From NCBI GenBank assembly GCA_964484845.1, contig CAZAHL010000001.1, positions 2,878 through 66,877 on the forward strand: a stretch of 64,000 nucleotides of DNA. Direction: 5' to 3'. Source of the DNA: an uncultured Chryseolinea sp. (lineage in GTDB: Bacteria; Bacteroidota; Bacteroidia; Cytophagales; Cyclobacteriaceae). The notes under the pieces were generated by a model. That model was not told the DNA's origin. It saw only the letters and a program-made list of their open reading frames with translations, and ran no database searches. Position numbers and translations under genes: made by a program. Shown piece after piece: positions 2,855-30,301 of the stretch (position 1 is its first letter; every line of letters starts with the position of its first letter).

Positions 2855-3310
2855 TCAACTTTTCTTAATACTGGCCCAAACTATAAGACAAAGCGCAAAA
2901 AAAGAAGTGAATGTTCTTACGATATGCAGCGACCACCACTTATCTCGTAATTCAATCCAGTTGTCTGGTGGAGCATCAGGGCTCCATGTCATTACTATAC
3001 TATTAATAGGTTGATTCCCAAACTTGGTTACGAGACCACCTATTATTATAAAGACAGCTGCAATTAGCAATGTTATAAAAGCAGTTTTATTCGCTCTTTG
3101 CAAAAAAGCACCAATCACTGTGACGACAATTGTAATCAATCCTAGAACAGGCATCAGAACATTAAAGGCATTGATAACACTTTGCTGCTGCTCTATGTAA
3201 GTATGCGCCGATAGTTCTTTGGGATTATAACCTAACCAGACCCCACAAAGAATTCCAGCTATTAGAGAAATAAGTATAACGTTTACAAATCGAAACAGGA
3301 GCGGTGTCAT
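2855..3310 (-). CDS. Small integral membrane protein, DUF1772 (anthrone-oxygenase-like) type
   Basis: 151 aa with four predicted TM helices. The layout and N-terminus (FVNVILISLIAGILCGVWLGYNP) look like DUF1772. Low-certainty family call. Confidence 0.45.
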   Translation of the reverse strand: MTPLLFRFVNVILISLIAGILCGVWLGYNPKELSAHTYIEQQQSVINAFNVLMPVLGLITIVVTVIGAFLQRANKTAFITLLIAAVFIIIGGLVTKFGNQPINSIVMTWSPDAPPDNWIELRDKWWSLHIVRTFTSFFALCLIVWASIKKS

Positions 3311-3385: not shown

Positions 3386-5644
3386 TCAACTACTTGGTTT
3401 TATTGTTTTATGATGATCGAGGCCGTGAGGGCTTAAACTTTTATCAGGTGAAGCCCAATAAAGGGTTTTAAGATTTATAGATTCAATTTTGTCACTCCCT
3501 TCTGTGATCTTAATGAATTGGTTAGGTTGTATGTTGTGAAAAACCTGAACTTCATTGCTGCCATGCCATTTTATTTCGATCTCCTCTATTAGTTCAGCTC
3601 CACCTACTCCGATTTCCCTTCGCAGTGGCGAAGCTCCAAAACTCCCGCCCGAATTAACATCCCGGTAAACACTTCGTGTAACACCATTTTCTTTGAAGGT
3701 GACCTTTACCCGGGTACCTATCGCTGCACGATTTGATTTTGTTCCTTCTAAACTAAGGCAGATCCAGTTATTATCACTTTGTCCGGGATTCAGAAAAAAT
3801 GAATTTTGATAAGCATCTCCAAGGTATGCGCCACCCATGTCAATATGGATGTCCTGGTCGCCATCGTTATCCATGTCAGCGAATGAAACTCCGTGGCCCT
3901 TTTGAAGATTTCCTACTCTTGCCGAGGCTGTGACATCGACGAACTTCTGACCCGCGATATTTTTAAACATTTTATTTGGAACAAGGGCCTTATAATCCGG
4001 GCTGCCTGTGCCTAAGTACATATCCAGGAACCCATCATTGTCAATGTCACCAAAATTGGATCCCATGGCAAACACATTTTTATCAAGCCCAATTTCGTTG
4101 GCCACATTTGTAAATGTGCCATCATGATTATTTTTGTATAAAAGCATTTTTTCTGGACTCCCAAGAGAGAAGTCGAGATTTTCAGCTGCAGTATACCAGC
4201 CCAACGATCTGTCAAATGAATAGTCGCAAGTGAAGATATCTAACCATCCATCATTATTGTAATCCCAAAACCAGGTTGGAAAAGTATGACCACGTTCCTT
4301 GTTCAGTCCAGCCTGTGCTGTGGCATCTTCAAATATTATTTCTCCGCCTTCCGTTCCTTTGTTTTTTAAAAGCTTCCGCTCACCATTCATTGTAGAAATA
4401 AAAATATCCTGCCAGCCGTCATTGTTATAATCGCCTGACGTTACACCTTTTACAAACCGCACTAAATTGCATTGTGCTTTTTTCGCAATCTCTCTAAAGG
4501 TTCCATCCTGGTTGTTGATGTAAAGTTCGCAAGGATGAGCTTCCTGTACTCCGCCCGTTGCAGTCTCATTTCCAATAAATAGATCAAGCCAGCCATCATT
4601 GTTAAAATCATTCCACGTTGCCGTTTGAGTAGGATGAAAGGAGAGCAGACCGCTTTGAGTGGTTACGTCCATAAAAGTACCATCACCGTTATTTTTAAGC
4701 AATGAATTAGGTTCCTTTCCGAATTCATTCTTCCAAGCTCCACGCAACACAAGGACATCCTTATAACCATCATTGTTATAGTCCGCCTGCATAATATTTA
4801 ACCCACCGGTGATTCCCTGAAGCCCTACCTTCTCTGAAAGATCACTGAACGTTCCATCTGCATTGTTTTTGAAATAGTGTAACGGGTCAGTTATGCCCCA
4901 GCTAGAGGTCATAAGGTCTAAATAACCATCATTATCAAAATCCTCGACTATACTTCCACCAGCCATATTCTTGGTGTCAAGTTTTAAATTCCCAGCAATG
5001 TCCTGAAACGCATTTACCTTATATGTTGTGTCGCCTTCCATACCAGGTATCAAAAACCGGGGGCTTATGCCCTTTGGATATTCTCCAAGCGTCATGTAAG
5101 CGATGTTAAGAAGCCATCCTGACTCGAGATCTTCCTGATTATTATTTTTTGATAGCAGTTTTTGATAAATCTCGATCGCCTTCCTTGAACCCGTTTGATC
5201 GGTGTGAATTCCCATACCTTTTACTGGCAAGATGCAGGATTCAACTGAGTGGTTAGCGATGCAATTAACTCGTTCGCCTTGCCTTAAATATCCCAGCGCC
5301 AGGTCTTTCCAAATCAATTCAAAGGCATAGTTCTTATCTTCTTTTGTCAGTTCTTCAAGGATTGCAATTGCTTCATCTTCCTGTCCCAATTGAAGCAGAA
5401 TATTTGCCTTTAAATAATTGCAATAGCGAATCTGGCTGGGTGTGCTGTGGGGTAATTGCAATAGCGAATCCATACGAGCCAAACCAATTAACGGTTGCCA
5501 TTGATTTTTTGAAACCTGTGATTCTCTATTAAATTTTTTAAGGATCGCGACCATTTCTTCATGACAGGAAGGTGATTGCCAACAGGACGGCGTTGAAATA
5601 AAAATCAAAGCGAACGCGATTGCTGAAAATATTTTTGGTTTCAA
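3386..5644 (-). CDS. CRTAC1-family lipoprotein (TPR-like N-terminal module, FG-GAP/VCBS repeats, UnbV_ASPIC C-terminal domain), paralog 1
   Basis: 752 aa with a lipoprotein-like signal peptide. It has repeated Ca-binding-type DxDxDG motifs (FDNDGYLD, YNNDGYKD, FNNDGWLD, YNNDGWQD, DIDNDGFLD, DMDNDGDQD). The UnbV_ASPIC-like tail reads NNWICLSLEGTKSNRAAIGTRVKV...VNSGGSFGASPLRREIGVG. Confidence 0.85.
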   Translation of the reverse strand: MKPKIFSAIAFALIFISTPSCWQSPSCHEEMVAILKKFNRESQVSKNQWQPLIGLARMDSLLQLPHSTPSQIRYCNYLKANILLQLGQEDEAIAILEELTKEDKNYAFELIWKDLALGYLRQGERVNCIANHSVESCILPVKGMGIHTDQTGSRKAIEIYQKLLSKNNNQEDLESGWLLNIAYMTLGEYPKGISPRFLIPGMEGDTTYKVNAFQDIAGNLKLDTKNMAGGSIVEDFDNDGYLDLMTSSWGITDPLHYFKNNADGTFSDLSEKVGLQGITGGLNIMQADYNNDGYKDVLVLRGAWKNEFGKEPNSLLKNNGDGTFMDVTTQSGLLSFHPTQTATWNDFNNDGWLDLFIGNETATGGVQEAHPCELYINNQDGTFREIAKKAQCNLVRFVKGVTSGDYNNDGWQDIFISTMNGERKLLKNKGTEGGEIIFEDATAQAGLNKERGHTFPTWFWDYNNDGWLDIFTCDYSFDRSLGWYTAAENLDFSLGSPEKMLLYKNNHDGTFTNVANEIGLDKNVFAMGSNFGDIDNDGFLDMYLGTGSPDYKALVPNKMFKNIAGQKFVDVTASARVGNLQKGHGVSFADMDNDGDQDIHIDMGGAYLGDAYQNSFFLNPGQSDNNWICLSLEGTKSNRAAIGTRVKVTFKENGVTRSVYRDVNSGGSFGASPLRREIGVGGAELIEEIEIKWHGSNEVQVFHNIQPNQFIKITEGSDKIESINLKTLYWASPDKSLSPHGLDHHKTIKPSS

Positions 5645-22301: not shown

Positions 22302-23402
22302 ATGTACAAAATCAGATTAAATCCTCAATTGATCAGCGGGGCAATTCTGTTCCTGTTACCCTTTACATGTTTCGCTCAATCGCAAAACGCTCCGGACCCC
22401 AAGAAAGGATTAAAGGATTACTATAAACCGTACTTCCCCATGGGTGTAGCCATCAGACCTCAATCTGTTAAAGGGGAAGAAGCAGTCCTCATCTTACAAC
22501 ATTTTGAAAGCATAACGGCGGAAAATGCCATGAAAATGGGCCCTATTCATCCGGAGGAGAATCGGTTTTTTTGGGAAGATGCTGATGCCATAGTTTCGTT
22601 TGCTCTAACTAACAACTTAAGAATACGGGGCCATACACTTTGCTGGCATAATCAAACTCCTGCGTGGTTGTTTAAAGATGCACGGGGTAACGATGTAACT
22701 AAGGAGGTTTTGCTAAAACGCTTAAAAGATCATATCGAAGCCGTTGCGTCGCGTTACAAAGGCAAGATCTATGCGTGGGATGTAGTGAATGAAGTTATCG
22801 ATGATGACGATACCAAGTATTTCCGCGATTCACCCTGGTATAAAATCTGTGGTGAAGAGTTTGTCGCGAAAGCGTTTGAGTATGCTCACCAAGCCGATCC
22901 GAATGCATTTTTATTTTATAATGATTACAATACTGAAAGTCCTGGAAAAAGAGATCGGATCTATCGTATGTTGAAAGAATTACTCGATAAGAAAGTTCCA
23001 ATTCACGGTGTAGGTCTGCAGGCACATTGGTCAATATTTAGTCCAACGGAAGAAGAGTTGCGTCAATCCATTGAAAAGTTCTCGTCCCTGGGATTAAAAG
23101 TTCAATTCACAGAGCTGGATATTTCTGTCTACCAATCAGAACATTCACGACGCGAACGGAAACCGGATGAGTCCGATACATTTAGTCCAGAAATGGAAGC
23201 AAAGCAAATTGAACAATATAAAATGGCCTTTGAAGTTTTCAGAGAACATAAAGACGTTATCACAGGAGTCACGTTTTGGAACGTTTCTGATAAATCCACA
23301 TGGCTTGATAATTTTCCGGTAAGAAGCCGTAAGAATTATCCTTTGCTATTCGACCAGAATCTAAAACCAAAAAAAGCATATTGGGAAGTGGTGAGATTCT
23401 GA
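22302..23402 (+). CDS. Endo-1,4-beta-xylanase, glycoside hydrolase family 10
   Basis: 366 aa with a signal peptide. GH10 blocks present: ITAENAMK, RGHTLCWHNQTPAWLF, WDVVNEVI (acid/base Glu), FYNDYN, FTELDIS (nucleophile Glu). Confidence 0.9.
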   Translation: MYKIRLNPQLISGAILFLLPFTCFAQSQNAPDPKKGLKDYYKPYFPMGVAIRPQSVKGEEAVLILQHFESITAENAMKMGPIHPEENRFFWEDADAIVSFALTNNLRIRGHTLCWHNQTPAWLFKDARGNDVTKEVLLKRLKDHIEAVASRYKGKIYAWDVVNEVIDDDDTKYFRDSPWYKICGEEFVAKAFEYAHQADPNAFLFYNDYNTESPGKRDRIYRMLKELLDKKVPIHGVGLQAHWSIFSPTEEELRQSIEKFSSLGLKVQFTELDISVYQSEHSRRERKPDESDTFSPEMEAKQIEQYKMAFEVFREHKDVITGVTFWNVSDKSTWLDNFPVRSRKNYPLLFDQNLKPKKAYWEVVRF

Positions 23403-23482
23403 CCGTTGCCCTCTCTTATACATATTGAATAAATAAAAACTTTGATTTGATAATCAGTAACATTGCACTATAAACCTTAGAC

Positions 23483-24319
23483 ATGAAAATATACAAAGTC
23501 AAACGAGGCATTGTCATAGAAACTGAAACATCCCTTTATCTAGTGGAAAATGAAAATTGGGACACGTTTATTAATGACGATGATCTTTTTGAAAAAGCGA
23601 CTCGCGTTGTACAAGCCTTGAAGGCTTCCCTTGAATCGAAAGAAGACCTGCTTAAAGAGCTACAGGCTCCAATACAAAATCAGGAAGTATGGGCCAGCGG
23701 CGTTACATACATAAGAAGTAAGGTAGGGAGGCAAGAGGAATCCAAGAATTCGGGGGCAAGTGATTTTTATGCCCGTGTATACGAAGCAGAGCGTCCTGAA
23801 TTATTCTTTAAAGCTACGCCCGGGCGGGTAGTGGCACCGGGAGGCAAAGTAAGAATCCGCAAGGATTCAACGTGGGATGTACCGGAACCCGAACTTACCT
23901 TGGTCATTACTTCAAGCGGTAAGATCGTTGGTTATACCATTGGAAACGACATGAGTTCAAGAAGCATCGAAGGCGAAAATCCTTTATATCTCCCGCAAGC
24001 CAAAACCTATGACGGATGTGCCGCTTTAGGCCCCTGCATTTATGTCACACAAAAACCATTACCAGGAAATACCCTTATTCAGCTCGAGATTCACAGAGAA
24101 AATAAAAAAGTATTTGAAGGAAGTGTTATGATCAACCAGATCAAGCGAACCTTCGAAGAACTTGCAGGGTTTTTATACCGTGAATGTAGCTTTCCTTACG
24201 GAAGTTTCCTGATGACGGGTACAGGCGTTGTGCCCGGAAGTGACTTCACGCTGCAAAAAAATGATCAAGTGAAGATTACTATTGAGCCCATCGGTACGCT
24301 CATTAATACTGTGGGTTAA
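23483..24319 (+). CDS. Fumarylacetoacetate hydrolase (FAH)-family protein, XylX/KdaD-like 2-keto-3-deoxy-pentonate dehydratase candidate
   Basis: 278 aa. The FAH-fold C-terminal half ([13 protein letters not shown]..., [32 protein letters not shown]) lies directly upstream of a KGSADH-type aldehyde dehydrogenase. Confidence 0.65.
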
Positions 24320-24320
24320 T

Positions 24321-24415
24321 AGATGTGTTTAGGTGCGTACGTGCTTAGGTGTTTACGTAAGCGCCTTGAACCTGACCCGTAAACACATAAACACTCAAAC
24401 ACATAAACACATTCA
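24321..24415. repeat. Imperfect ~37-bp inverted repeat built from period-8 GTGTTTAN / NTAAACAC units
   Basis: Left arm agatgtgtttaggtgcgtacgtgcttaggtgtttacg. The reverse complement of the right arm is gaatgtgtttatgtgtttgagtgtttatgtgtttacg, giving 28 of 37 matches by hand alignment. The core GTGTTTACG (24349..24357) and CGTAAACAC (24378..24386) pair perfectly. The element fills the spacer between the FAH and ALDH genes. Confidence 0.85.
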
Positions 24416-24417
24416 TA

Positions 24418-25992
24418 ATGACTGGAAAGAATATAATTGGAGCATCTCTCTCCGGTGATAGCAAAGAAATTTTCTATGGCGAGAATCCATCAAACGGACA
24501 AAATTTAGAGCCTGGTTTTTATGAAGCCACTCAGCAAGAAATAGATGAAGCAATTGAAAAAGCTTCGGCTGCATTCCAACATTATCGTAATGTCAGTGGG
24601 AAAGACAAAGCTACTTTTCTCGAAACTATTGCGGAAGAAATTGTTGCATTAGGGGAAAGCTTAATTTCACGATGCATGGAAGAGACAGGACTTCCGGAAG
24701 CAAGACTTTTGGGAGAACGCGGACGTACCGTTGGACAGCTAAAACTCTTTGCAAATCTTCTTCGCGAAGGTTCCTGGGTTGATGCAAGGATCGATACAGT
24801 TGAGCCTGACAGAAAACCATTACCGAGGCCTGATGTTAGAAGCATGCAAAAAGCACTAGGGCCAGTTGGTATTTTTGGGGCTAGTAATTTTCCATTCGCT
24901 TTTTCAGTAGCCGGTGGGGATACAGTCTCCGCGTTGGCAGCTGGATGTCCCGTGGTTTTTAAAGCGCATCCCGCGCATCCGGGAGTATGCGAGCTAGTAG
25001 GCCTTGCCATACAACGCGCTATAAAAAAAACTGGAATGCCGGAAGGTACATTTTCCATGGTGAATGGAAAATCAACCCAAGTTGGATTGGCCCTTGTAAG
25101 ACACTCTTCTATATCAGCTGTTGGTTTTACGGGATCTTTTAGAGGTGGAAAAGCTTTGTTTGATGAAGCCAACAAAAGGCCTGTACCCATCCCGGTATAT
25201 GCGGAGATGGGTAGTACGAATCCCGTGTTCATTCTTCCCGACGCTTTAAAAGAAAGAAAAGAAAAAATTGCTCAGGAGCTTGCTGCTGCCGTCACGTTAG
25301 GTGTAGGACAATTCTGCACGAACCCAGGTTTAGTATTTATTCAAAATTCGGACGACGGCTCTCAATTTAAAGATGCATTGTCCAATAGCATCAAGGGAAT
25401 TAACGCTGGTGTTATGTTGACCTCGGGTATGCAAAACAATTACCAAAAAGGTATTGAAAAGCTGAGTAATACCAAGGGAGTAAATGTCCTCGCAAAGGGA
25501 ACAACGGAAGGATCCGGTAGCCGGGGTACAGCCCACTTATTGCATGCTTCAATTGAATCCTTTTTGAATGATCATACCCTGGAAGAAGAAGTTTTTGGCC
25601 CTTCTACCCTAGCGATAACGGCTAACAATAAGGCTGAACTACTTCAAGCTGCTAAGAACTTAAATGGTCACATCACTGCAACACTTCACGCCACGGATAA
25701 AGATTTAAAAGAATATGTTGATCTTATTGCCATACTGGAACAAAAGGTCGGTCGTTTAATTATTAACGGTTACCCTACCGGTGTTGAAGTTTGTCATGCC
25801 ATGGTTCATGGCGGTCCGTTTCCTGCCACGACTGACAGTCGTTCAACATCCGTCGGAACAGGGTCCATTAGCCGTTTTACCCGACCTGTTTGTTATCAAA
25901 ATTTTCCATCTGCATTGCTTCCTCCCGAATTACAGGAAAATAATCCGTTAGGCATTTGGCGATTAGTAAACGGAGAAAGACAAAAGAAATAA
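24418..25992 (+). CDS. NADP-dependent aldehyde dehydrogenase, alpha-ketoglutarate-semialdehyde dehydrogenase (KGSADH/XylA)-like
   Basis: 524 aa. ALDH catalytic Glu (YAEMGSTNP) and Cys (GQFCTNPG) contexts are present. The size and N-terminus are typical of the 'aldehyde dehydrogenase (NADP+)' KGSADH clade. Confidence 0.8.
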   Translation: MTGKNIIGASLSGDSKEIFYGENPSNGQNLEPGFYEATQQEIDEAIEKASAAFQHYRNVSGKDKATFLETIAEEIVALGESLISRCMEETGLPEARLLGERGRTVGQLKLFANLLREGSWVDARIDTVEPDRKPLPRPDVRSMQKALGPVGIFGASNFPFAFSVAGGDTVSALAAGCPVVFKAHPAHPGVCELVGLAIQRAIKKTGMPEGTFSMVNGKSTQVGLALVRHSSISAVGFTGSFRGGKALFDEANKRPVPIPVYAEMGSTNPVFILPDALKERKEKIAQELAAAVTLGVGQFCTNPGLVFIQNSDDGSQFKDALSNSIKGINAGVMLTSGMQNNYQKGIEKLSNTKGVNVLAKGTTEGSGSRGTAHLLHASIESFLNDHTLEEEVFGPSTLAITANNKAELLQAAKNLNGHITATLHATDKDLKEYVDLIAILEQKVGRLIINGYPTGVEVCHAMVHGGPFPATTDSRSTSVGTGSISRFTRPVCYQNFPSALLPPELQENNPLGIWRLVNGERQKK

Positions 25993-26093
25993 TTTATATA
26001 GCATAATACTTTCCGTGCATTTGGTAGCGAAAAAATTATTATTTGTATACTGCAAAGACTTATTACTTCCTCGTATCAATGCATCCACTGGTA

Positions 26094-26304
26094 GAAGCCC
26101 GAAGGGCTTCAATGTGAATAGCCACCGGTGAAACCGGTGGAAAGTTATATAGTGCAGATAACCCTGAAAGGGTTAAACGTTCTAAGCTATTAATTATGAG
26201 AAGCTACAAAATCAAACATTAAACCCCGTCGGGGTTTTTACAACATTCCAATTGTAACCCTGAGTTGCACTCAGGGCTATTCACCTTGAAGCCTTTCAGG
26301 CTTC
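26094..26304. repeat. Six-hairpin palindromic element with 30-bp terminal inverted repeats (MITE/REP-like element or structured RNA)
   Basis: Hairpins lie at 26094..26110, 26122..26140, 26159..26175, 26221..26237, 26258..26276 and 26288..26304. The left end GAAGCCCGAAGGGCTTCAATGTGAATAGCC matches the reverse complement of the right end GAAGCCTGAAAGGCTTCAAGGTGAATAGCC at 27 of 30 positions. Two of the three differences are a compensatory pair within the hairpin stem. Confidence 0.8.
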
Positions 26305-26409
26305 GTTTGTCGAAAGTATAGTTTTTTTTATTTCGCGCTGCAGGTTTCGGGCCGGGCCATGCTTGGAAGTTCTACGAAGAGAAAAAGCATAGAAGGAGAT
26401 AGAATGACC

Positions 26410-26940
26410 TTACTCTAACATTGGTTGATAATCGTCTGAGGGTCTTTCATGCAAGTGAGATTCCATGATAATGCGCGCACAGGTATTCCATCGCAAAATA
26501 GGATCGTTGTTCTCACCTTTATTAATCTCGTCTGCCTTTTCATAAAACTGCATGGCTTCACGATACCACATGTATGCATCAAAGTCAGCCCCTGGTAACG
26601 ATGAGCTTAGTGCAGCAGCGCCTTGACGCTCATGAATAATTCCAGTGTAATAAATTTTTGAATACTCATCTTTCAAACTATTCGCCAATTCAAGGGCTCG
26701 TTTGGAAGCTTTCGTGGACGACTGTTTGAACTGATCCGTGAGTGCTAATAACAAGACAACGGCAGCCTTTTGATTTCCCGGATCTATGTCCAACACATCC
26801 AGGCAAATGCTTTCGGCGAGTCGAGGCTGATTGAGGAATCTGTAATGTTCAGCTTTGCCCACGGCTGCATCAATGCTGTCTTTTGAAAGGGGCTTAAGTT
26901 CAAACTGAGGGGTTTCGGTTGATGGTGATACTATTCTCAT
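26410..26940 (-). CDS. Hypothetical protein, helical/TPR-like, last gene of the sdh operon
   Basis: 176-aa ORF, 24 bp downstream of sdhB on the same strand. No motif recognised. Confidence 0.5.
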   Translation of the reverse strand: MRIVSPSTETPQFELKPLSKDSIDAAVGKAEHYRFLNQPRLAESICLDVLDIDPGNQKAAVVLLLALTDQFKQSSTKASKRALELANSLKDEYSKIYYTGIIHERQGAAALSSSLPGADFDAYMWYREAMQFYEKADEINKGENNDPILRWNTCARIIMESHLHERPSDDYQPMLE

Positions 26941-26964: not shown

Positions 26965-27705
26965 TCACTTACTAAATATACGGAAAAGCTTCATGAGGGG
27001 GTCATAAAACTTATCTGCAACTCTTTCTTTCAATGGAATAATGGCATTATCGGTAATGTGAATATTTTCAGGACAAACCGTTGTACAACATTTGGTGATA
27101 TTACAAAAACCAATGCCGTGTTCAGCTCTCAAATCTCCGGTTCGGTCTTCTATATCTAGAGGATGCATTTCAAGTGCTGCTGTGTATACCATGTGACGGG
27201 GACCAGCAAATTTTTCTTCCAAATGATGCTCCCGCAAAACGTGACATACATCCTGGCAAAGGAAACATTCAATACATTTCCGGAACTCCTGAACCCGGTC
27301 TATATCACTTTGATCCATTCGCCACGTGCCGTCAGGTGCATCGGGTGAACGAGGCTTGAACTTTTTTATTTTCTTTTTGATCCGGTAGTTCACCGATACA
27401 TCCGTTACTAAATCTTTGATCACTGGAAAGGCTTTCATGGGCTGAATAGTGACAGGCTTACCTTCCGGCATATCAGCCATTCGCGTCATGCACATCAACT
27501 TAGGATGTCCATTAATTTCGGCAGAGCACGACCCACACTTACCCGCTTTGCAATTCCATCGCACTGCCAGATCGTTGGCATGCTCTGCCTGAATCTGGTG
27601 AACGGCGTCAAGCACTACCATCCCTTCGGTAATTTCAGTTTTGTATTCCTGAAATTCGCCGCCGCTTGAATTTGTACGCCATATGTTGAATAAAACTTTT
27701 GGCAT
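26965..27705 (-). CDS. sdhB: Succinate dehydrogenase/fumarate reductase iron-sulfur subunit
   Basis: 246 aa with three Cys clusters: CKAGKCGSCSAEINGHPKLMC (2Fe-2S), CIECFLCQDVC and CNITKCCTTVCP. The start overlaps the sdhA stop (TAATG). Confidence 0.9.
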   Translation of the reverse strand: MPKVLFNIWRTNSSGGEFQEYKTEITEGMVVLDAVHQIQAEHANDLAVRWNCKAGKCGSCSAEINGHPKLMCMTRMADMPEGKPVTIQPMKAFPVIKDLVTDVSVNYRIKKKIKKFKPRSPDAPDGTWRMDQSDIDRVQEFRKCIECFLCQDVCHVLREHHLEEKFAGPRHMVYTAALEMHPLDIEDRTGDLRAEHGIGFCNITKCCTTVCPENIHITDNAIIPLKERVADKFYDPLMKLFRIFSK

Positions 27706-29525
27706 TATTTCATTTCCTCTATGATTTGCTGAAGGTCTTCCCGAACTTTCTGTTTCGGTATTTGCTTTACTTCCATATTGCCCGCTGAATCTTTTTGAAT
27801 ACAGATATTTACCTTTCCAAACACCTCACTCTTCTCCTGAAAGTCCTCGCGAAAGTGCCCACCGCGACTTTCCTTGCGTTCTTTGGCTGCCCGTGTAATC
27901 GCTTCAGCGACGGTTATCATATGTTTTAACTCCAGGGCTGTATGCCAACCAGGGTTATATCCACGATTTCCACCACAGCCCGCCCGATCCGCGCGTACAC
28001 TTAAACCTTTTATCTTATCAATGGCTTCATTCAATTCACTTTCAATCCGTACAATTCCGACGAGCTTATGCATCTCTTCCTGTAAATCGGTTTGGACTTG
28101 AAAAGGATTCTCAGCACCCGAGGTTGATCCTCTTTGAAATGGAGCCAGCGCCCACGTTGAAACTTCTTCCAGTTGTTCCTCGCTGATCTTACCCGCCTTG
28201 GATTCTTTAGCATACTTCGCCGCATATTCACCTGCGCGCTGACCAAATACCAGCAAGTCGGAAAGTGAATTACCTCCTAACCGGTTTGCTCCATGAAGAC
28301 CGGCTGCACATTCACCAGCTGCAAAGAGGCCAGGAATGCTCGTCATTTGGGTGTCGGCATCGACGCGCACACCTCCCATGATGTAGTGCGTTGTAGGACC
28401 TACTTCCATTGGTTCCTTCGTGATATCAACACCAGCTAGTTCTTTAAATTGATGATACATGCTGGGCAGCTTTCTCTTAATGTGCTCCGGCGCGTTTGAA
28501 ATTTTTTCTTTAATCCAGGCAATGTCCAGAAACACTCCGCCATGAGGCGATCCACGGCCTTCTTTTATCTCGCGCGTAATACAACGTGCCACATGATCTC
28601 GTGTTAATAATTCCGGTGGGCGTTTTGCATTTTTGTCTCCCTGCGTATATCGCCAGCCTTCTTCTTCATCCGTTGATGTTTGCCCTTTGTAAAGTTCGGG
28701 TATGTCATCAAACATGAATCGTCGTCCTTTATTATTTCGCAATACTCCCCCTTCGCCCCGTACTCCTTCGGTAATTAAAAGCCCACGAACACTGGGAGGC
28801 CATACCATACCCGTTGGATGAAACTGTACAAATTCCATATCGATAAGTTCGGCACCGGCGTGGTAGGCTAAGGAAATTCCACCTCCAGTACAATCCCAAC
28901 TATTGCTGGAGATTTTATAAATCCTGCCCATTCCCCCCGTTGCAATTATGACAGCTTTAGCTTGAAATATTTTGAAGCGACCCTTCTCACGATCATAGCC
29001 AAATGCGCCCACTACTTTCTCACCATCCTTCAACAAGCTTACAATGGTATACTCCTGGTAGATGTCTACCTTTTGATGAATCGCATGATCCTGTAATGTC
29101 CGGATCATTTCAAGTCCAGTGCGGTCGCCCACGTGAGCCAGGCGCGGATATTTATGTCCCCCGAAATTGCGCTGTAAAATTCTGCCATCTTCGGTTCTAT
29201 CGAATACCGCTCCCCAGGCTTCCAACTCTCTTACCCGATCGGGGGCCTCCTTTGCATGCAGTTCAGCCATCCTCCAGTTATTCAGGTATTGACCACCGCG
29301 CATGGTATCTGCAAAATGGACTTTCCAACTATCCCGATCATCCACATTAGCTAAAGCTGCGGCAACACCACCTTCTGCCATAACGGTATGCGCCTTGCCC
29401 AACAGTGATCGGCATATAACAGCAACGGAAACACCAGTACCTGCTGCTTCAATCGCCGCTCTAAGCCCCGCGCCACCGGAACCGATGACAAGTACATCAT
29501 GATTATATGTTTCGTAGTTGGCCAT
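27705..29525 (-). CDS. sdhA: Succinate dehydrogenase/fumarate reductase flavoprotein subunit
   Basis: The start is moved to MANYETYNHDVLVIGSGGAGLRAAIEAA (FAD dinucleotide fold), where its ATG overlaps the sdhC stop (TAATG at 29523..29527). Motifs: GKAHTVMAEGG, HPTG, RGEGG, ANRLGGNSL. Confidence 0.9.
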   Translation of the reverse strand: MANYETYNHDVLVIGSGGAGLRAAIEAAGTGVSVAVICRSLLGKAHTVMAEGGVAAALANVDDRDSWKVHFADTMRGGQYLNNWRMAELHAKEAPDRVRELEAWGAVFDRTEDGRILQRNFGGHKYPRLAHVGDRTGLEMIRTLQDHAIHQKVDIYQEYTIVSLLKDGEKVVGAFGYDREKGRFKIFQAKAVIIATGGMGRIYKISSNSWDCTGGGISLAYHAGAELIDMEFVQFHPTGMVWPPSVRGLLITEGVRGEGGVLRNNKGRRFMFDDIPELYKGQTSTDEEEGWRYTQGDKNAKRPPELLTRDHVARCITREIKEGRGSPHGGVFLDIAWIKEKISNAPEHIKRKLPSMYHQFKELAGVDITKEPMEVGPTTHYIMGGVRVDADTQMTSIPGLFAAGECAAGLHGANRLGGNSLSDLLVFGQRAGEYAAKYAKESKAGKISEEQLEEVSTWALAPFQRGSTSGAENPFQVQTDLQEEMHKLVGIVRIESELNEAIDKIKGLSVRADRAGCGGNRGYNPGWHTALELKHMITVAEAITRAAKERKESRGGHFREDFQEKSEVFGKVNICIQKDSAGNMEVKQIPKQKVREDLQQIIEEMK

Positions 29526-30301
29526 TACAATATTCTCCAATCTGTCCAAATGCCCATCGAGCAAAGACGCACATAAACATCTGCGAACATCACCCCAAAC
29601 AAACTGAACCATGCCCAATTCATATGCCCTCTGTTAAGGCAACTAGCACAGTCGTAAACTTTTTTCTGTACAGGTGATTTTGAAAGCCGGTCTTTAAATC
29701 CTCCTACTAGATGACGGAAAGAATGACATCCAAATGTATATCCCCCAAGCAACGTTGCATTGAGCGTCAATACTAATGTGCCCACCCCAATCCCAAATGT
29801 TTTTTCTCCTGTGACCGAATCAACGAACCACATTGCCTTCCATGCATCGTAAGCCAGAAGGATTACAAAGATGATTGCCAGGTAAAGGAAATAGCGATGA
29901 ATGTTTTGCATGATCAGGGGGAAGGAATTTTCACCCAGGTATGTCTTACGAGGTTCCGACACTGCACATGCAGGAGGGTCTGCCCAGAATGATTTATAAT
30001 AAGCGCCACGATAATAATAGCAGGTAAAACGCATGCCTCCAGGCGCCCATAAAATGAGTAAGGCTGGAGAGAAAGGTATTACTGCCGGCCACCACGAAGG
30101 CTTTGGTCCAAACCAGCTATGAGGAGAACTGCCAAAAATTTCAGGTGAATAAAAGGGAGAAAGATAGGGGCCGATTGCATAGTGCTCACCCTGAAAGGCG
30201 GCCCAAGTAGCATACACAATAAATGATGAGAGGCCCACCAGGACCAAAAGTGGACGGACCCACCACAGATCATTTCTTGAAGTAATGCCGAAAGTACTCA
30301 T
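29525..30301 (-). CDS. sdhC: Succinate dehydrogenase membrane-anchor subunit, single large anchor with Cys/His motifs (mycobacterial Sdh1 SdhC-like)
   Basis: 258 aa with about 5 TM helices. It is first in the anchor-flavoprotein-FeS gene order. It carries GCHSFRH and CASCLNRGH motifs. The assignment rests on context and topology. Confidence 0.65.
   Translation of the reverse strand: MSTFGITSRNDLWWVRPLLVLVGLSSFIVYATWAAFQGEHYAIGPYLSPFYSPEIFGSSPHSWFGPKPSWWPAVIPFSPALLILWAPGGMRFTCYYYRGAYYKSFWADPPACAVSEPRKTYLGENSFPLIMQNIHRYFLYLAIIFVILLAYDAWKAMWFVDSVTGEKTFGIGVGTLVLTLNATLLGGYTFGCHSFRHLVGGFKDRLSKSPVQKKVYDCASCLNRGHMNWAWFSLFGVMFADVYVRLCSMGIWTDWRIL

Follow-up and report, generated by a model that had tools for sequence, protein, structure and literature searches.

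A gene-less doublet of inverted three-hairpin modules in an uncultured Chryseolinea is probably a non-autonomous repeat element associated with a Y1/HUH transposase

The intergenic element at 26094..26304 of the window (the whole 64-kb stretch of DNA analysed here) is probably a non-autonomous, REPIN/MITE-like doublet of a module associated with a Y1/HUH transposase, which has lost the transposase gene and would be mobilised in trans. It consists of two inverted modules with three hairpins each. The same ends flank a Y1/HUH gene elsewhere, which upholds the proposal made in the preliminary description of this DNA that a MITE- or REP-like mobile element recognised by a transposase might be present.

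The spacer that holds the element is 417 bp long (25993-26409) and lies between convergent genes, as had been described. Its left border is the stop of the aldehyde-dehydrogenase gene (24418-25992, + strand). On the right the sdh operon had been named; the immediate neighbour there is a 176-aa ORF (26410-26940, - strand), whose stop adjoins the spacer and which comes after sdhB and sdhA, and not an sdh gene itself. All six stem-loops listed earlier were found at their positions, and they fall into two modules. The left module (26093..26182, + strand) is matched by the covariance model of the module, R1 (93 model positions, three hairpins), with 96.3 bits and an E value of 1e-19. It starts with the terminal hairpin hpA-L (GAAGCCC-GAA-GGGCTTC, 26094..26110, + strand), followed by a single-stranded tag, AATGTGAATAG (26111..26121, + strand), that lies directly 5′ of hpB-L (CCACCGG-TGAAA-CCGGTGG, 26122..26140, + strand), in which the stem sequence is variable and the TGaAA loop conserved. 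An A-rich spacer then leads to hpC-L (TAACCCT-GAA-AGGGTTA, 26159..26175, + strand). The right module (26214..26305, - strand; R1 97.2 bits, E value 7e-20) has the same parts on the opposite strand. Its terminal hairpin hpA-R (26288..26304, - strand) reads GAAGCCT-GAA-AGGCTTC on the - strand (GAAGCCT-TTC-AGGCTTC on the +) and carries a T-A compensatory pair, the tag reads AAGGTGAATAG on the - strand (26277..26287), hpB-R (26258..26276, - strand) reads CCCTGAG-TGCAA-CTCAGGG on the - strand (CCCTGAG-TTGCA-CTCAGGG on the +), and hpC-R (26221..26237, - strand) reads AAACCCC-GAC-GGGGTTT on the - strand (AAACCCC-GTC-GGGGTTT on the +). The two modules are separated by about 31-34 nt. Hairpins 2 and 5, once considered unrelated in sequence, are therefore the homologous hpB positions of two inverted copies of one module, and the same hpB sequences, that of the left end as well as that of the right end, are found again in the related DNA L003, L004 and L014.

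The outermost 30 nt of the two ends match in inverted orientation except at 3 positions, in agreement with the 27 of 30 counted before, and two of these three differences are indeed a C-G to T-A swap, located in the terminal hairpin at its innermost pair. Not one terminal inverted match arose in 100 shuffles. With a repeat search the inverted repeat can be followed over 41 nt at 80% identity, and the inverted likeness of the ends spans about 90 nt. The minimum free energy is -94.1 kcal/mol on one strand (z = -8.6) and -96.9 kcal/mol on the other (z = -9.2), and none of 200 shuffles folded as well as the element. Within the 64-kb window the element is single-copy, as neither BLAST nor the covariance model found a further copy there, and the window holds no tnpA.

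A gene between such ends was found in related DNA. In L014, L018 and L106 and in 80 metagenome loci, a Y1/HUH transposase of 148 aa is enclosed by two such inverted modules; no other gene has been found in this position. At 4874-5536 of L014, left and right ends like those of the window (88-92% identical) enclose a 148-aa ORF (4987-5433) that matches Pfam Y1_Tnp (PF01797, E value 2e-22) and the NCBIfam IS200 equivalog NF033573 (60.3 bits against a cutoff of 55), and for which the PDB matches are ISHp608 TnpA and ISDra2 TnpA. Compared with the L014 left ends, the left module of the window shows 90% identity, and it has the orientation seen upstream of tnpA in full-length relatives; the right module shows 88-92% identity with the right ends of L014 and has the orientation seen downstream. 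A second full-length copy, L018, is distant, with a TnpA that is 53% identical, yet the tag of the window's left module recurs in it unchanged. The bracketed TnpA has the Y motif YIKNQKxHH and the HuH motif DHIH. Among 14 aligned homologues the motifs DH[IV]H, WQ and Y---Q--HH are invariant or nearly so; the invariant residues in alignment A1 are D53, H54, H56, W94, Q95, Y114, Q118, H121 and H122, and a C-terminal tail FDE[KR]YL is conserved. These features (147-148 aa, DH[IV]H, WQ, Y---Q--HH, C-terminal tail) agree with the signature of TnpA_Y1 subclass 1.2, an assignment made by motif comparison with Table 1 of PMC6006769. A protein search gave more than 2,400 TnpA homologues at E ≤ 1e-5, among them proteins of Runella limosa and Niabella drilacis. 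It may be noted that tnpA itself looks single-copy (tnpA P0222 occupies one genomic place in 24 of the 24 contigs read), and for this reason the full tnpA unit is probably not an active IS. In the runs from the window's own sample, X1 and X2, contigs span a whole tnpA that is about 90% identical to that of L014 and that belongs to a relative in the same sample; this tnpA cannot be assigned to the window's own genome.

The association of the module with tnpA is regular and occurs in many Bacteroidota. In the 80 metagenomic tnpA loci the covariance model identified 240 modules at E ≤ 0.01. When nhmmer was used to look within 200 nt of tnpA, 65 of 78 loci had a + module upstream and 67 of 79 had a - module downstream, and modules flank the gene on both sides in 57 of 75. 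Pairs in the order + then - form a long class with gaps of 451-597 nt, in which tnpA lies inside, and a short class of 27 gene-less cases with gaps of 6-109 nt. Gene-less doublets with gaps of 7-22 nt are the common dispersed form in MAG loci. Modules also occur in arrays, with up to 8-10 per locus and, in one MAG, at least 15 across three loci. A search with a pattern derived from the terminal inverted repeats gave 18 loci in Bacteroidota MAGs and one Verrucomicrobia MAG, with several per genome. No plasmid matches to the element were found, and 34 pattern matches in viral contigs are due to chance, as none of these contigs contains a module according to the covariance model.

The copies also tell where the element ends. 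In metagenomes it is multi-copy with many different flanks, and its depth is 30-95 against about 5 on the flanks (6-18 times the flanks). Metagenome contigs break or diverge right before 26094/26095 and after 26304-26307, with unrelated sequence beyond, and short-read contigs stop at module edges in every metagenome examined. Across the family conservation stops at the foot of hpA, and the information content outside hpA is about 0 bits at all 30 positions in 193 modules. No tetra- or pentanucleotide target next to the left end is conserved family-wide, and window-type copies in metagenomes have diverse left flanks; a target specific to one subfamily may nonetheless exist. The target-site duplication that had been suggested is absent, for the flanks …CACTGGTA| and |GTTTGTCG share no direct repeat, which suits a Y1 transposase better than a classical MITE of the DDE type.

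What is conserved in the module is structure rather than sequence, as had been surmised: the stems covary across 147 distinct copies that vary in sequence. Stem cells are paired in 95.3% of cases as compared to 73.8% in shuffles, double (compensatory) changes occur at 21 of 21 stem pairs, and the covariation score, which is 0.03-0.065 in slid controls, reaches 0.566; these counts come partly from an alignment fitted to the model, and the cells are not independent events. RNAalifold recovers all three hairpins, hpC included, from an alignment not fitted to structure. In helix 1 (hpA) 91.7% of cells are paired, with compensatory changes in 7 of 7 pairs, and for the pair at columns 8/17, 107 copies have CG and 25 have UA. 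Helix 2 (hpB) has 96.5% of cells paired with up to 5-6 pair types per position, and helix 3 (hpC) has 97.8%. The tag (consensus …TgAATA[g/a] before hpB) is the best-conserved unpaired stretch of the module, and its TA is invariant in 150 copies. The wobble pairs give an orientation to these stems: + modules have 42 G·T against 13 A·C and - modules 44 against 13, an excess of about 3:1 that lies on the module strand at both ends and hence on opposite strands. This strand-specific bias points to recognition as single-stranded DNA. It also removes the possibility that the modules are leader and trailer structures of the tnpA mRNA, since at the right end the bias is on the antisense strand.

The core between the modules (26183..26213, + strand) suggests how the doublet arose. 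Judged from sequence, its ~31 nt are a probable remnant of the tnpA leader and start, with the first codons in …TTATGAGAAGC…; the counterpart in the full copy of L014 reads …CTATGAGCAGTCATCG… and a variant in run X1 reads TATGAGCAGTCGTCAAAATGAAAACATTAAACCCC. In an alignment that includes other deleted copies, the core runs straight into what, in full-length copies, is the sequence just after the tnpA stop, and the deletion junction reads …ATGAGAAGCTACAAAATC|AAACATTAAACC…. Some doublets thus keep pieces of tnpA, from which we conclude that they arise by internal deletion, as MITEs do. The amount of tnpA kept differs between doublet lineages, which implies repeated independent deletions.

The same remnants allow another reading, in which a full-length tnpA element lost its gene in place and left an immobile relic, the doublet having never moved or multiplied as such. 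Besides the leader and start-codon remnant and the independent deletions, this reading can draw on the relatives in X4 and X7, where the doublet is present at the same locus (X4 contig 18, X7 contig 19) and is thus not a recent arrival. We nevertheless regard it as unlikely. Contigs from other samples show the same core junction in another context, contig 9 of X3 passes from a right end into a left end and on through 26219 with 2 mismatches, and in X1 the depth over 26156-26209 is about 3 times that of the flanks. The 27 further gene-less doublets in the 80 loci, and their being the usual dispersed form in MAG loci, are also against a relic. The locus itself gives no direct comparison. Neither the locus relatives nor the contigs of eight metagenome/genome runs supplied a clean pair of filled and empty sites for the window's position, and no contig of those eight runs skips exactly 26094-26304. 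The exact aldehyde-dehydrogenase protein is not on record. The locus relatives were gathered through the 176-aa neighbour, and their spacers are diverse: in L019-L021 an extra ILVD_EDD gene is present, in L023 the spacer has 21 nt, in L025 there are 219 nt of unrelated sequence, and in L024 module fragments are arranged differently.

A feature kept by the host for RNA or transcription, whatever its origin, is less probable still, although REP and MITE elements are known to have been co-opted for such roles (PMC3733652). It could be a bidirectional terminator, an mRNA-stabilising cluster or a small structured RNA. The position between convergent genes and the very stable RNA fold on both strands (the z values given above) would suit it, and on the - strand hpC-R resembles a terminator, with a T-rich tail after it. 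This is the one such site, a weak one, as compared to a mean of 0.6 in shuffles, and so the terminator cluster put forward before is not supported. The small structured RNA offered as a further candidate fares no better, for a wobble bias on opposite strands at the two ends is a misfit for a single transcript. The module moreover mostly flanks tnpA or sits in arrays, and relatives do with the 21-nt spacer. A search of RNA runs gave none that contains the region. Rfam gave no match at gathering thresholds over the whole window, which is in line with the remark that no named RNA family could be recognised; over the spacer, at a permissive E value, the best sub-threshold match reached 20 bits against a cutoff of 211. 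Finally, a classical MITE whose 30-bp terminal repeats are read as double-stranded DNA by a DDE transposase is very improbable: the 27 of 30 inverted ends, the small size and the lack of coding capacity would allow it, but there is no target-site duplication, the sole parent gene found encodes a Y1/HUH transposase, and stems that covary while sequences vary, together with a strand-specific wobble, are unexpected for duplex recognition.

Set against known systems, the doublet of Y1/HUH-associated modules has features of several. As in REPINs, BIMEs and REPtrons, two hairpin-forming repeat copies lie inverted and close together, and as in REPtrons inverted repeats flank a low-copy Y1/HUH gene with arrays beside it. 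With REPs it shares a covarying hairpin immediately preceded, on the 5′ side, by a conserved single-stranded tag, and repeats that are apparently extragenic and multi-copy and are devoid of a target-site duplication. Unlike the REPtron enzyme RAYT (class 2 TnpA_REP, Y---NP), the transposase here is class 1 and IS200-like, with Y---Q--HH and DH[IV]H. The tag is AATA[G/A] instead of the REP tag GT[AG]G, the unit is ~90 nt with three hairpins instead of one imperfect palindrome of 20-40 nt, and, in a further difference from REPINs, some doublets retain pieces of the transposase gene, that of the window included. Likeness to the IS200/IS605 group (IS200, IS608, ISDra2) and to PATEs lies in the same TnpA fold and family, the hairpin ends, the insertion without direct repeats and the origin of derivatives by gene loss. 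Canonical IS200/IS605 elements, however, are without terminal inverted repeats and have both ends read on the top strand, whereas here one end is an inverted copy of the other and the wobble bias points to opposite strands for the two; also, no conserved 4-5-nt target is seen beside the left end, and tnpA is apparently single-copy, not an IS with many near-identical copies. The nearest enzyme group is TnpA_Y1 subclass 1.2, to which length (147-148 aa), motifs, C-terminal tail, low copy number and distribution in Bacteroidetes correspond. Quentin et al. (2018, BMC Genomics 19:475; PMC6006769) listed this subclass as ‘REP: no’, while we find structured inverted modules on both sides of 57 of 75 genes and gene-less doublets dispersed. 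Our search, outside of which lay most subscription journals and ISfinder, found no later description of a DNA partner of subclass 1.2 or of the motif. The TIRYT proteins of the same study are also Y1 transposases with genes bounded by terminal inverted repeats other than canonical REPs, yet both repeat sequences and protein class are unlike those here, as TIRYT fall into class 2, for the most part into subclass 2.1 with its HTH tails, and have the repeat consensus GGGG[AT][CG]A[CG] (PMC6006769).

From this we propose a mechanism modelled on the TnpA of IS608 and ISDra2 and on TnpA_REP of E. coli. During a single-stranded stage, for example at a replication fork, each module would fold its hairpins on its own strand. 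TnpA supplied in trans could then bind the hairpin beside the conserved tag, for which we propose hpB, and cut and rejoin at the module edge, so that doublets would be excised, copied or amplified with no target-site duplication. The binding and cleavage of modules by TnpA, the hairpin that is read and the movement of doublets are all inferred from analogy with these enzymes, and ‘peel and paste’ cannot simply be transferred, because the ends are inverted unlike those of IS200/IS605.

A wider reading, to which we give even chances as a whole, is that the TnpA of subclass 1.2, an IS200-class enzyme described in 2018 as an orphan that lacks both IS ends and REPs, lies at the heart of a REPtron-like system that is independent and widespread in Bacteroidota. 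This Y1 enzyme, single-copy and probably kept vertically, would then maintain and disperse the 90-nt modules and their inverted doublets, and would recognise the modules in single-stranded form, each on its own strand. For annotation, multi-hairpin spacers of this type in Bacteroidota are to be taken as Y1-transposase-associated repeat doublets and not as new RNAs or terminators. A candidate DNA substrate is now offered for Y1/HUH subclass 1.2, previously reported without associated repeats, and with its defined tag, three covarying hairpins and unusual inverted geometry this substrate makes binding and cleavage directly testable. It bears on how Y1 enzymes spread REP-like repeats whose two ends lie on opposite strands. 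If the wider reading is true, a Y1 transposase would have been domesticated a second time, convergently and together with a repeat family of its own, of which the window holds one doublet.

The six short hairpins of the preliminary description are all present in the window exactly as given (26094-26110, 26122-26140, 26159-26175, 26221-26237, 26258-26276 and 26288-26304). Its 30-nt inverted ends were confirmed, with three mismatches between the outer copies and 0 matches in 100 dinucleotide-preserving shuffles; two of these differences are indeed a C-G to T-A swap at the innermost pair of the terminal hairpin. In a repeat search the inverted repeat reaches 41 nt, with 80% identity. The minimum free energy of the 231-nt stretch is -94.1 kcal/mol on the forward strand and -96.9 kcal/mol on the complementary strand, while shuffles give about -55 (z = -8.6 and -9.2). 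The spacer (25993-26409) has the described length of 417 bp and begins, as described, where an aldehyde-dehydrogenase gene (24418-25992, + strand) stops, but its right border is not an sdh gene itself: that border is formed by the stop codon of a 176-aa ORF (26410-26940, - strand), conserved but without a Pfam hit, the minus-strand order being sdhA, sdhB and then this ORF.

When left ends and reverse-complemented right ends were placed in one MAFFT alignment, they aligned along their entire length. The shared module consists of a hairpin hpA (AAGCCC-GAA-GGGCTT), an unpaired tag (cAATgTGAATAg), a hairpin hpB with a 7-bp stem of variable sequence and a TGaAA loop, an A-rich stretch of about 21 nt, and a hairpin hpC (AACCCC-GAA-GGGGTT, then GAAT). 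Hairpins 1 and 6 are both hpA and hairpins 3 and 4 both hpC. The mirror geometry noted for hairpins 2 and 5 is explained by both being hpB; though unrelated in sequence, they occupy homologous positions in the two module copies. A covariance model built from 14 end sequences gives 96.3 bits for the left half and 97.2 for the right (E about 1e-19) and has no other match in the window, and BLAST likewise finds the element only once within the 64 kb. The differences between the hpA copies and between the hpB sequences keep the local hairpins, and the same differences would break a long left-right duplex.

A pattern made from the inverted ends (GAANGGCTTCAANGTGAATAGCC) was scanned against one genome per species. 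This gave 18 loci, 17 in Bacteroidota MAGs (Saprospiraceae, Chitinophagaceae, Cyclobacteriaceae, Prolixibacteraceae and Arcicella) and 1 in a Verrucomicrobia MAG, with single genomes yielding several. One locus, L014, holds a tandem series of elements whose left and right ends are 88-92% identical to the window's, and at about 4874-5536 the ends bracket a 148-aa ORF that matches Pfam Y1_Tnp (E 2e-22) and the NCBIfam IS200/IS605 transposase equivalog (60.3 bits, cutoff 55), its nearest solved structures being the ISHp608 and ISDra2 TnpA. The GC-rich Verrucomicrobia locus (L018, 686-1347) provides another full-length copy. Although its TnpA has only 53% identity, hpA and the tag, the initial 37 nt of the left end, are 95% identical to those of the window; either this stretch is very strongly constrained, or the copy reflects horizontal transfer or mis-binning. 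Since its ends match those of the full-length copies in L014 and L018, the window element represents both ends of a tnpA unit with the gene missing. Also, the core of about 31 nt between the halves (26183-26213) aligns with the tnpA leader and first codons (…TTATGAGAAGC… versus …CTATGAGCAGTC…) and runs straight into the sequence found after the tnpA stop in full-length copies, and other gene-less copies retain differing amounts of tnpA. Some doublets, the window's among them, have clearly arisen via internal deletion of a gene-bearing unit, which is a likeness to MITEs. The MAG with one intact tnpA at L014 also has a gene-bearing copy in decay: at L004 (2419-2535), an intact left module precedes a tnpA cut down to its first 37 residues (62% identical) and interrupted by a stop.

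Covariation was examined in 147 distinct modules, in an alignment fitted to the model. Standard pairs fill 95.3% of the stem cells as against 73.8% after partner shuffling, two-sided changes occur at all 21 pairs, and 650 double-change cells were observed where 192 were expected. The covariation score is 0.566, and sliding the partners by 1-3 columns lowers it to 0.03-0.065. On the unfitted alignment of ends, RNAalifold also recovered all three hairpins, and 12 of their 21 pairs are compensated there. What is conserved as sequence is the loops, the tag (two positions invariant in 150 copies) and the hpC flank. Counted on each module's own strand, stem G·T exceeds A·C by 42:13 upstream of tnpA and 44:13 downstream, a bias to which model scoring could add mildly; relative to tnpA, the strand favoured thus differs between the ends, sense on the left and antisense on the right. 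The structure is under selection, and apparently in single-stranded form: the bias fits modules that each fold on their own strand as DNA, but not hairpins in the leader and trailer of a single mRNA. The proposed terminator cluster found no support, with a single weak site in a terminator scan, a number not above that in shuffles. For a named structured RNA, the Rfam scan of the element found no matching family. The suggested transposase-linked element of MITE/REP type is the one borne out: the same ends bracket a Y1 TnpA and their stems covary.

A protein search gave >2,400 TnpA homologues at E <= 1e-5, and 14 aligned homologues have invariant D53-H54-x-H56, W94-Q95 and Y114-x3-Q118-x2-H121-H122, with a conserved C-terminal tail. 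The TnpA bracketed by modules shares exactly the defining features of TnpA_Y1 subclass 1.2 (median 148 aa, DH[IV]H, WQ, YIKNQKEHH; Quentin et al. 2018, PMC6006769), known from Cyanobacteria and Bacteroidetes at 1.7 copies per genome and entered there as 'REP: no'; the automatic REP search of that study targeted canonical GT[AG]G-tagged REPs (PMC6006769). In 80 metagenomic loci with TnpA homologues at 52-76% identity, the covariance model found 240 modules (E<=0.01). An nhmmer search run independently placed a + module no more than 200 nt upstream of tnpA in 65 of 78 assessable loci and a - module at most 200 nt downstream in 67 of 79; 57 of 75 loci have both, the median distances being 32 nt upstream and 9 nt downstream. 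At a further locus, L106, modules flank the gene likewise, and tnpA is single-copy there, being found at the same genomic place in 24 of 24 contigs read. Neighbouring '+ then -' module pairs fall into two classes, with gaps of 451-597 nt enclosing tnpA or gene-less gaps of 6-109 nt (27 cases). The window doublet, with its 34-nt gap, belongs to the latter; the commonest dispersed form in MAG loci is a doublet with a gap of 7-22 nt.

Many copies with unrelated flanks occur in metagenomes. In the sequencing run X1, where 98% of the region's words are present, 26102-26317 is covered at a depth of 30-95 and the flanks at about 5, with a similar excess in other runs, and many contigs match the element and then pass into unrelated sequence exactly before 26094/26095 or after 26304-26307. 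No information was found in the 30 nt outside hpA across 193 modules, so the foot of hpA is the unit edge. One contig of run X3 links 26304 to 26091, right end to left end, with one extra base, and could be a tandem copy (multiplication) or a circle junction. In one MAG neighbouring elements are linked right end to left end via a shared 20-26-nt spacer sequence (about ATGCCATCTGCTTCGATGTGTTG), present in either orientation; right-to-left linking spacers lie at 4570-4597, 4850-4875, 5536-5561 and 5809-5830 of L014, 6945-6972 of L003, and 282-304 and 2291-2313 of L004. L003 has a lone unit ordered as right end, spacer and left end, a circular permutation of the window layout. These joins, too, could stem from tandem multiplication or a circle junction. 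Contigs of X1 and X2, from the window's own sample, cover a complete tnpA that shares about 90% identity with the L014 gene, at a depth of 7-18 versus 4-5 for the window's genome; they thus provide a potential trans-acting enzyme in the same community, not assignable to the window's genome. The element had no plasmid match. Viral-contig hits to the end pattern were due to chance, as the covariance model finds no module there.

Close relatives differ greatly in the spacer that follows the 176-aa gene (3529-3897 in L019, 3532-3750 in L021). A relative at 89% (L023) has 21 nt there (3532-3552) and one at 91% (L025) an unrelated 219 nt (762-980). Loci L019-L021, with neighbours 85-86% identical, have an additional ILVD_EDD-family dehydratase gene between the 176-aa gene and the aldehyde dehydrogenase, which the window does not have at this position. 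In L024, whose 176-aa neighbour protein is 91% identical, module fragments lie in a different arrangement, 2892-2978 (-) and 3129-3216 (+), that is in '- then +' order and 150 nt apart, with the same gene upstream, past an extra 105-aa ORF. The neighbourhood of the 176-aa gene may be a recurrent landing or rearrangement site. The closest relatives seen (in runs X4 and X7) already have the doublet, so the insertion predates the splits from them. No clean empty site was found among the relatives fetched and the metagenome contigs at the locus, nor did the search for a target-site duplication reveal any direct repeat flanking the window element; movement of the doublet is what we infer.

As to the neighbouring genes, the 176-aa ORF directly follows sdhB in the same position in every relative fetched, has >2,500 homologues at E <= 1e-10 under inconsistent names (RarA, TPR protein, hypothetical), and may be an undescribed accessory gene of the succinate dehydrogenase/fumarate reductase operon. 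The mechanically called sdhA ORF (27705-29618, - strand) opens with a TTG and has 637 aa, compared with 606 aa for called orthologues in relatives; translation probably begins some 31 codons further downstream. On the other side, 22302-25992 (+) encodes in a row a GH10 xylanase, an FAA-hydrolase-family protein and the aldehyde dehydrogenase, which, on Pfam hits only, resembles a portion of an oxidative (Weimberg-type) pentose pathway beside a xylan-degrading enzyme.

The IS608/ISDra2 TnpA and the E. coli TnpA_REP bind a DNA hairpin within single-stranded DNA, use or read a short tag 5′ of the hairpin foot, and cleave with the catalytic tyrosine, leaving no duplication. By analogy, hpB with the AATAG tag would be the recognition unit, and cleavage and rejoining at the module edge would allow doublets to be excised or copied during replication. 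The best-supported reading of the element is a non-autonomous doublet of a module putatively recognised by a subclass-1.2 TnpA. In its inverted geometry and single-copy gene the system is closer to a REPtron with its REPINs than to an IS200/IS605 insertion sequence, except that the protein is of IS200 class and not a RAYT, and that the repeat, unlike a canonical REP, is a three-hairpin composite without a GTAG tag. A Y1-transposase-associated hairpin repeat in the form of a gene-less inverted doublet is of a kind already known. The pairing of subclass 1.2 with this module appears undescribed in the literature searched, which excluded most subscription journals and ISfinder, and the paper defining the subclass gives no partner DNA (PMC6006769). 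The element is thus ordinary as a genome feature, and it offers a concrete candidate substrate for an uncharacterised transposase subclass.
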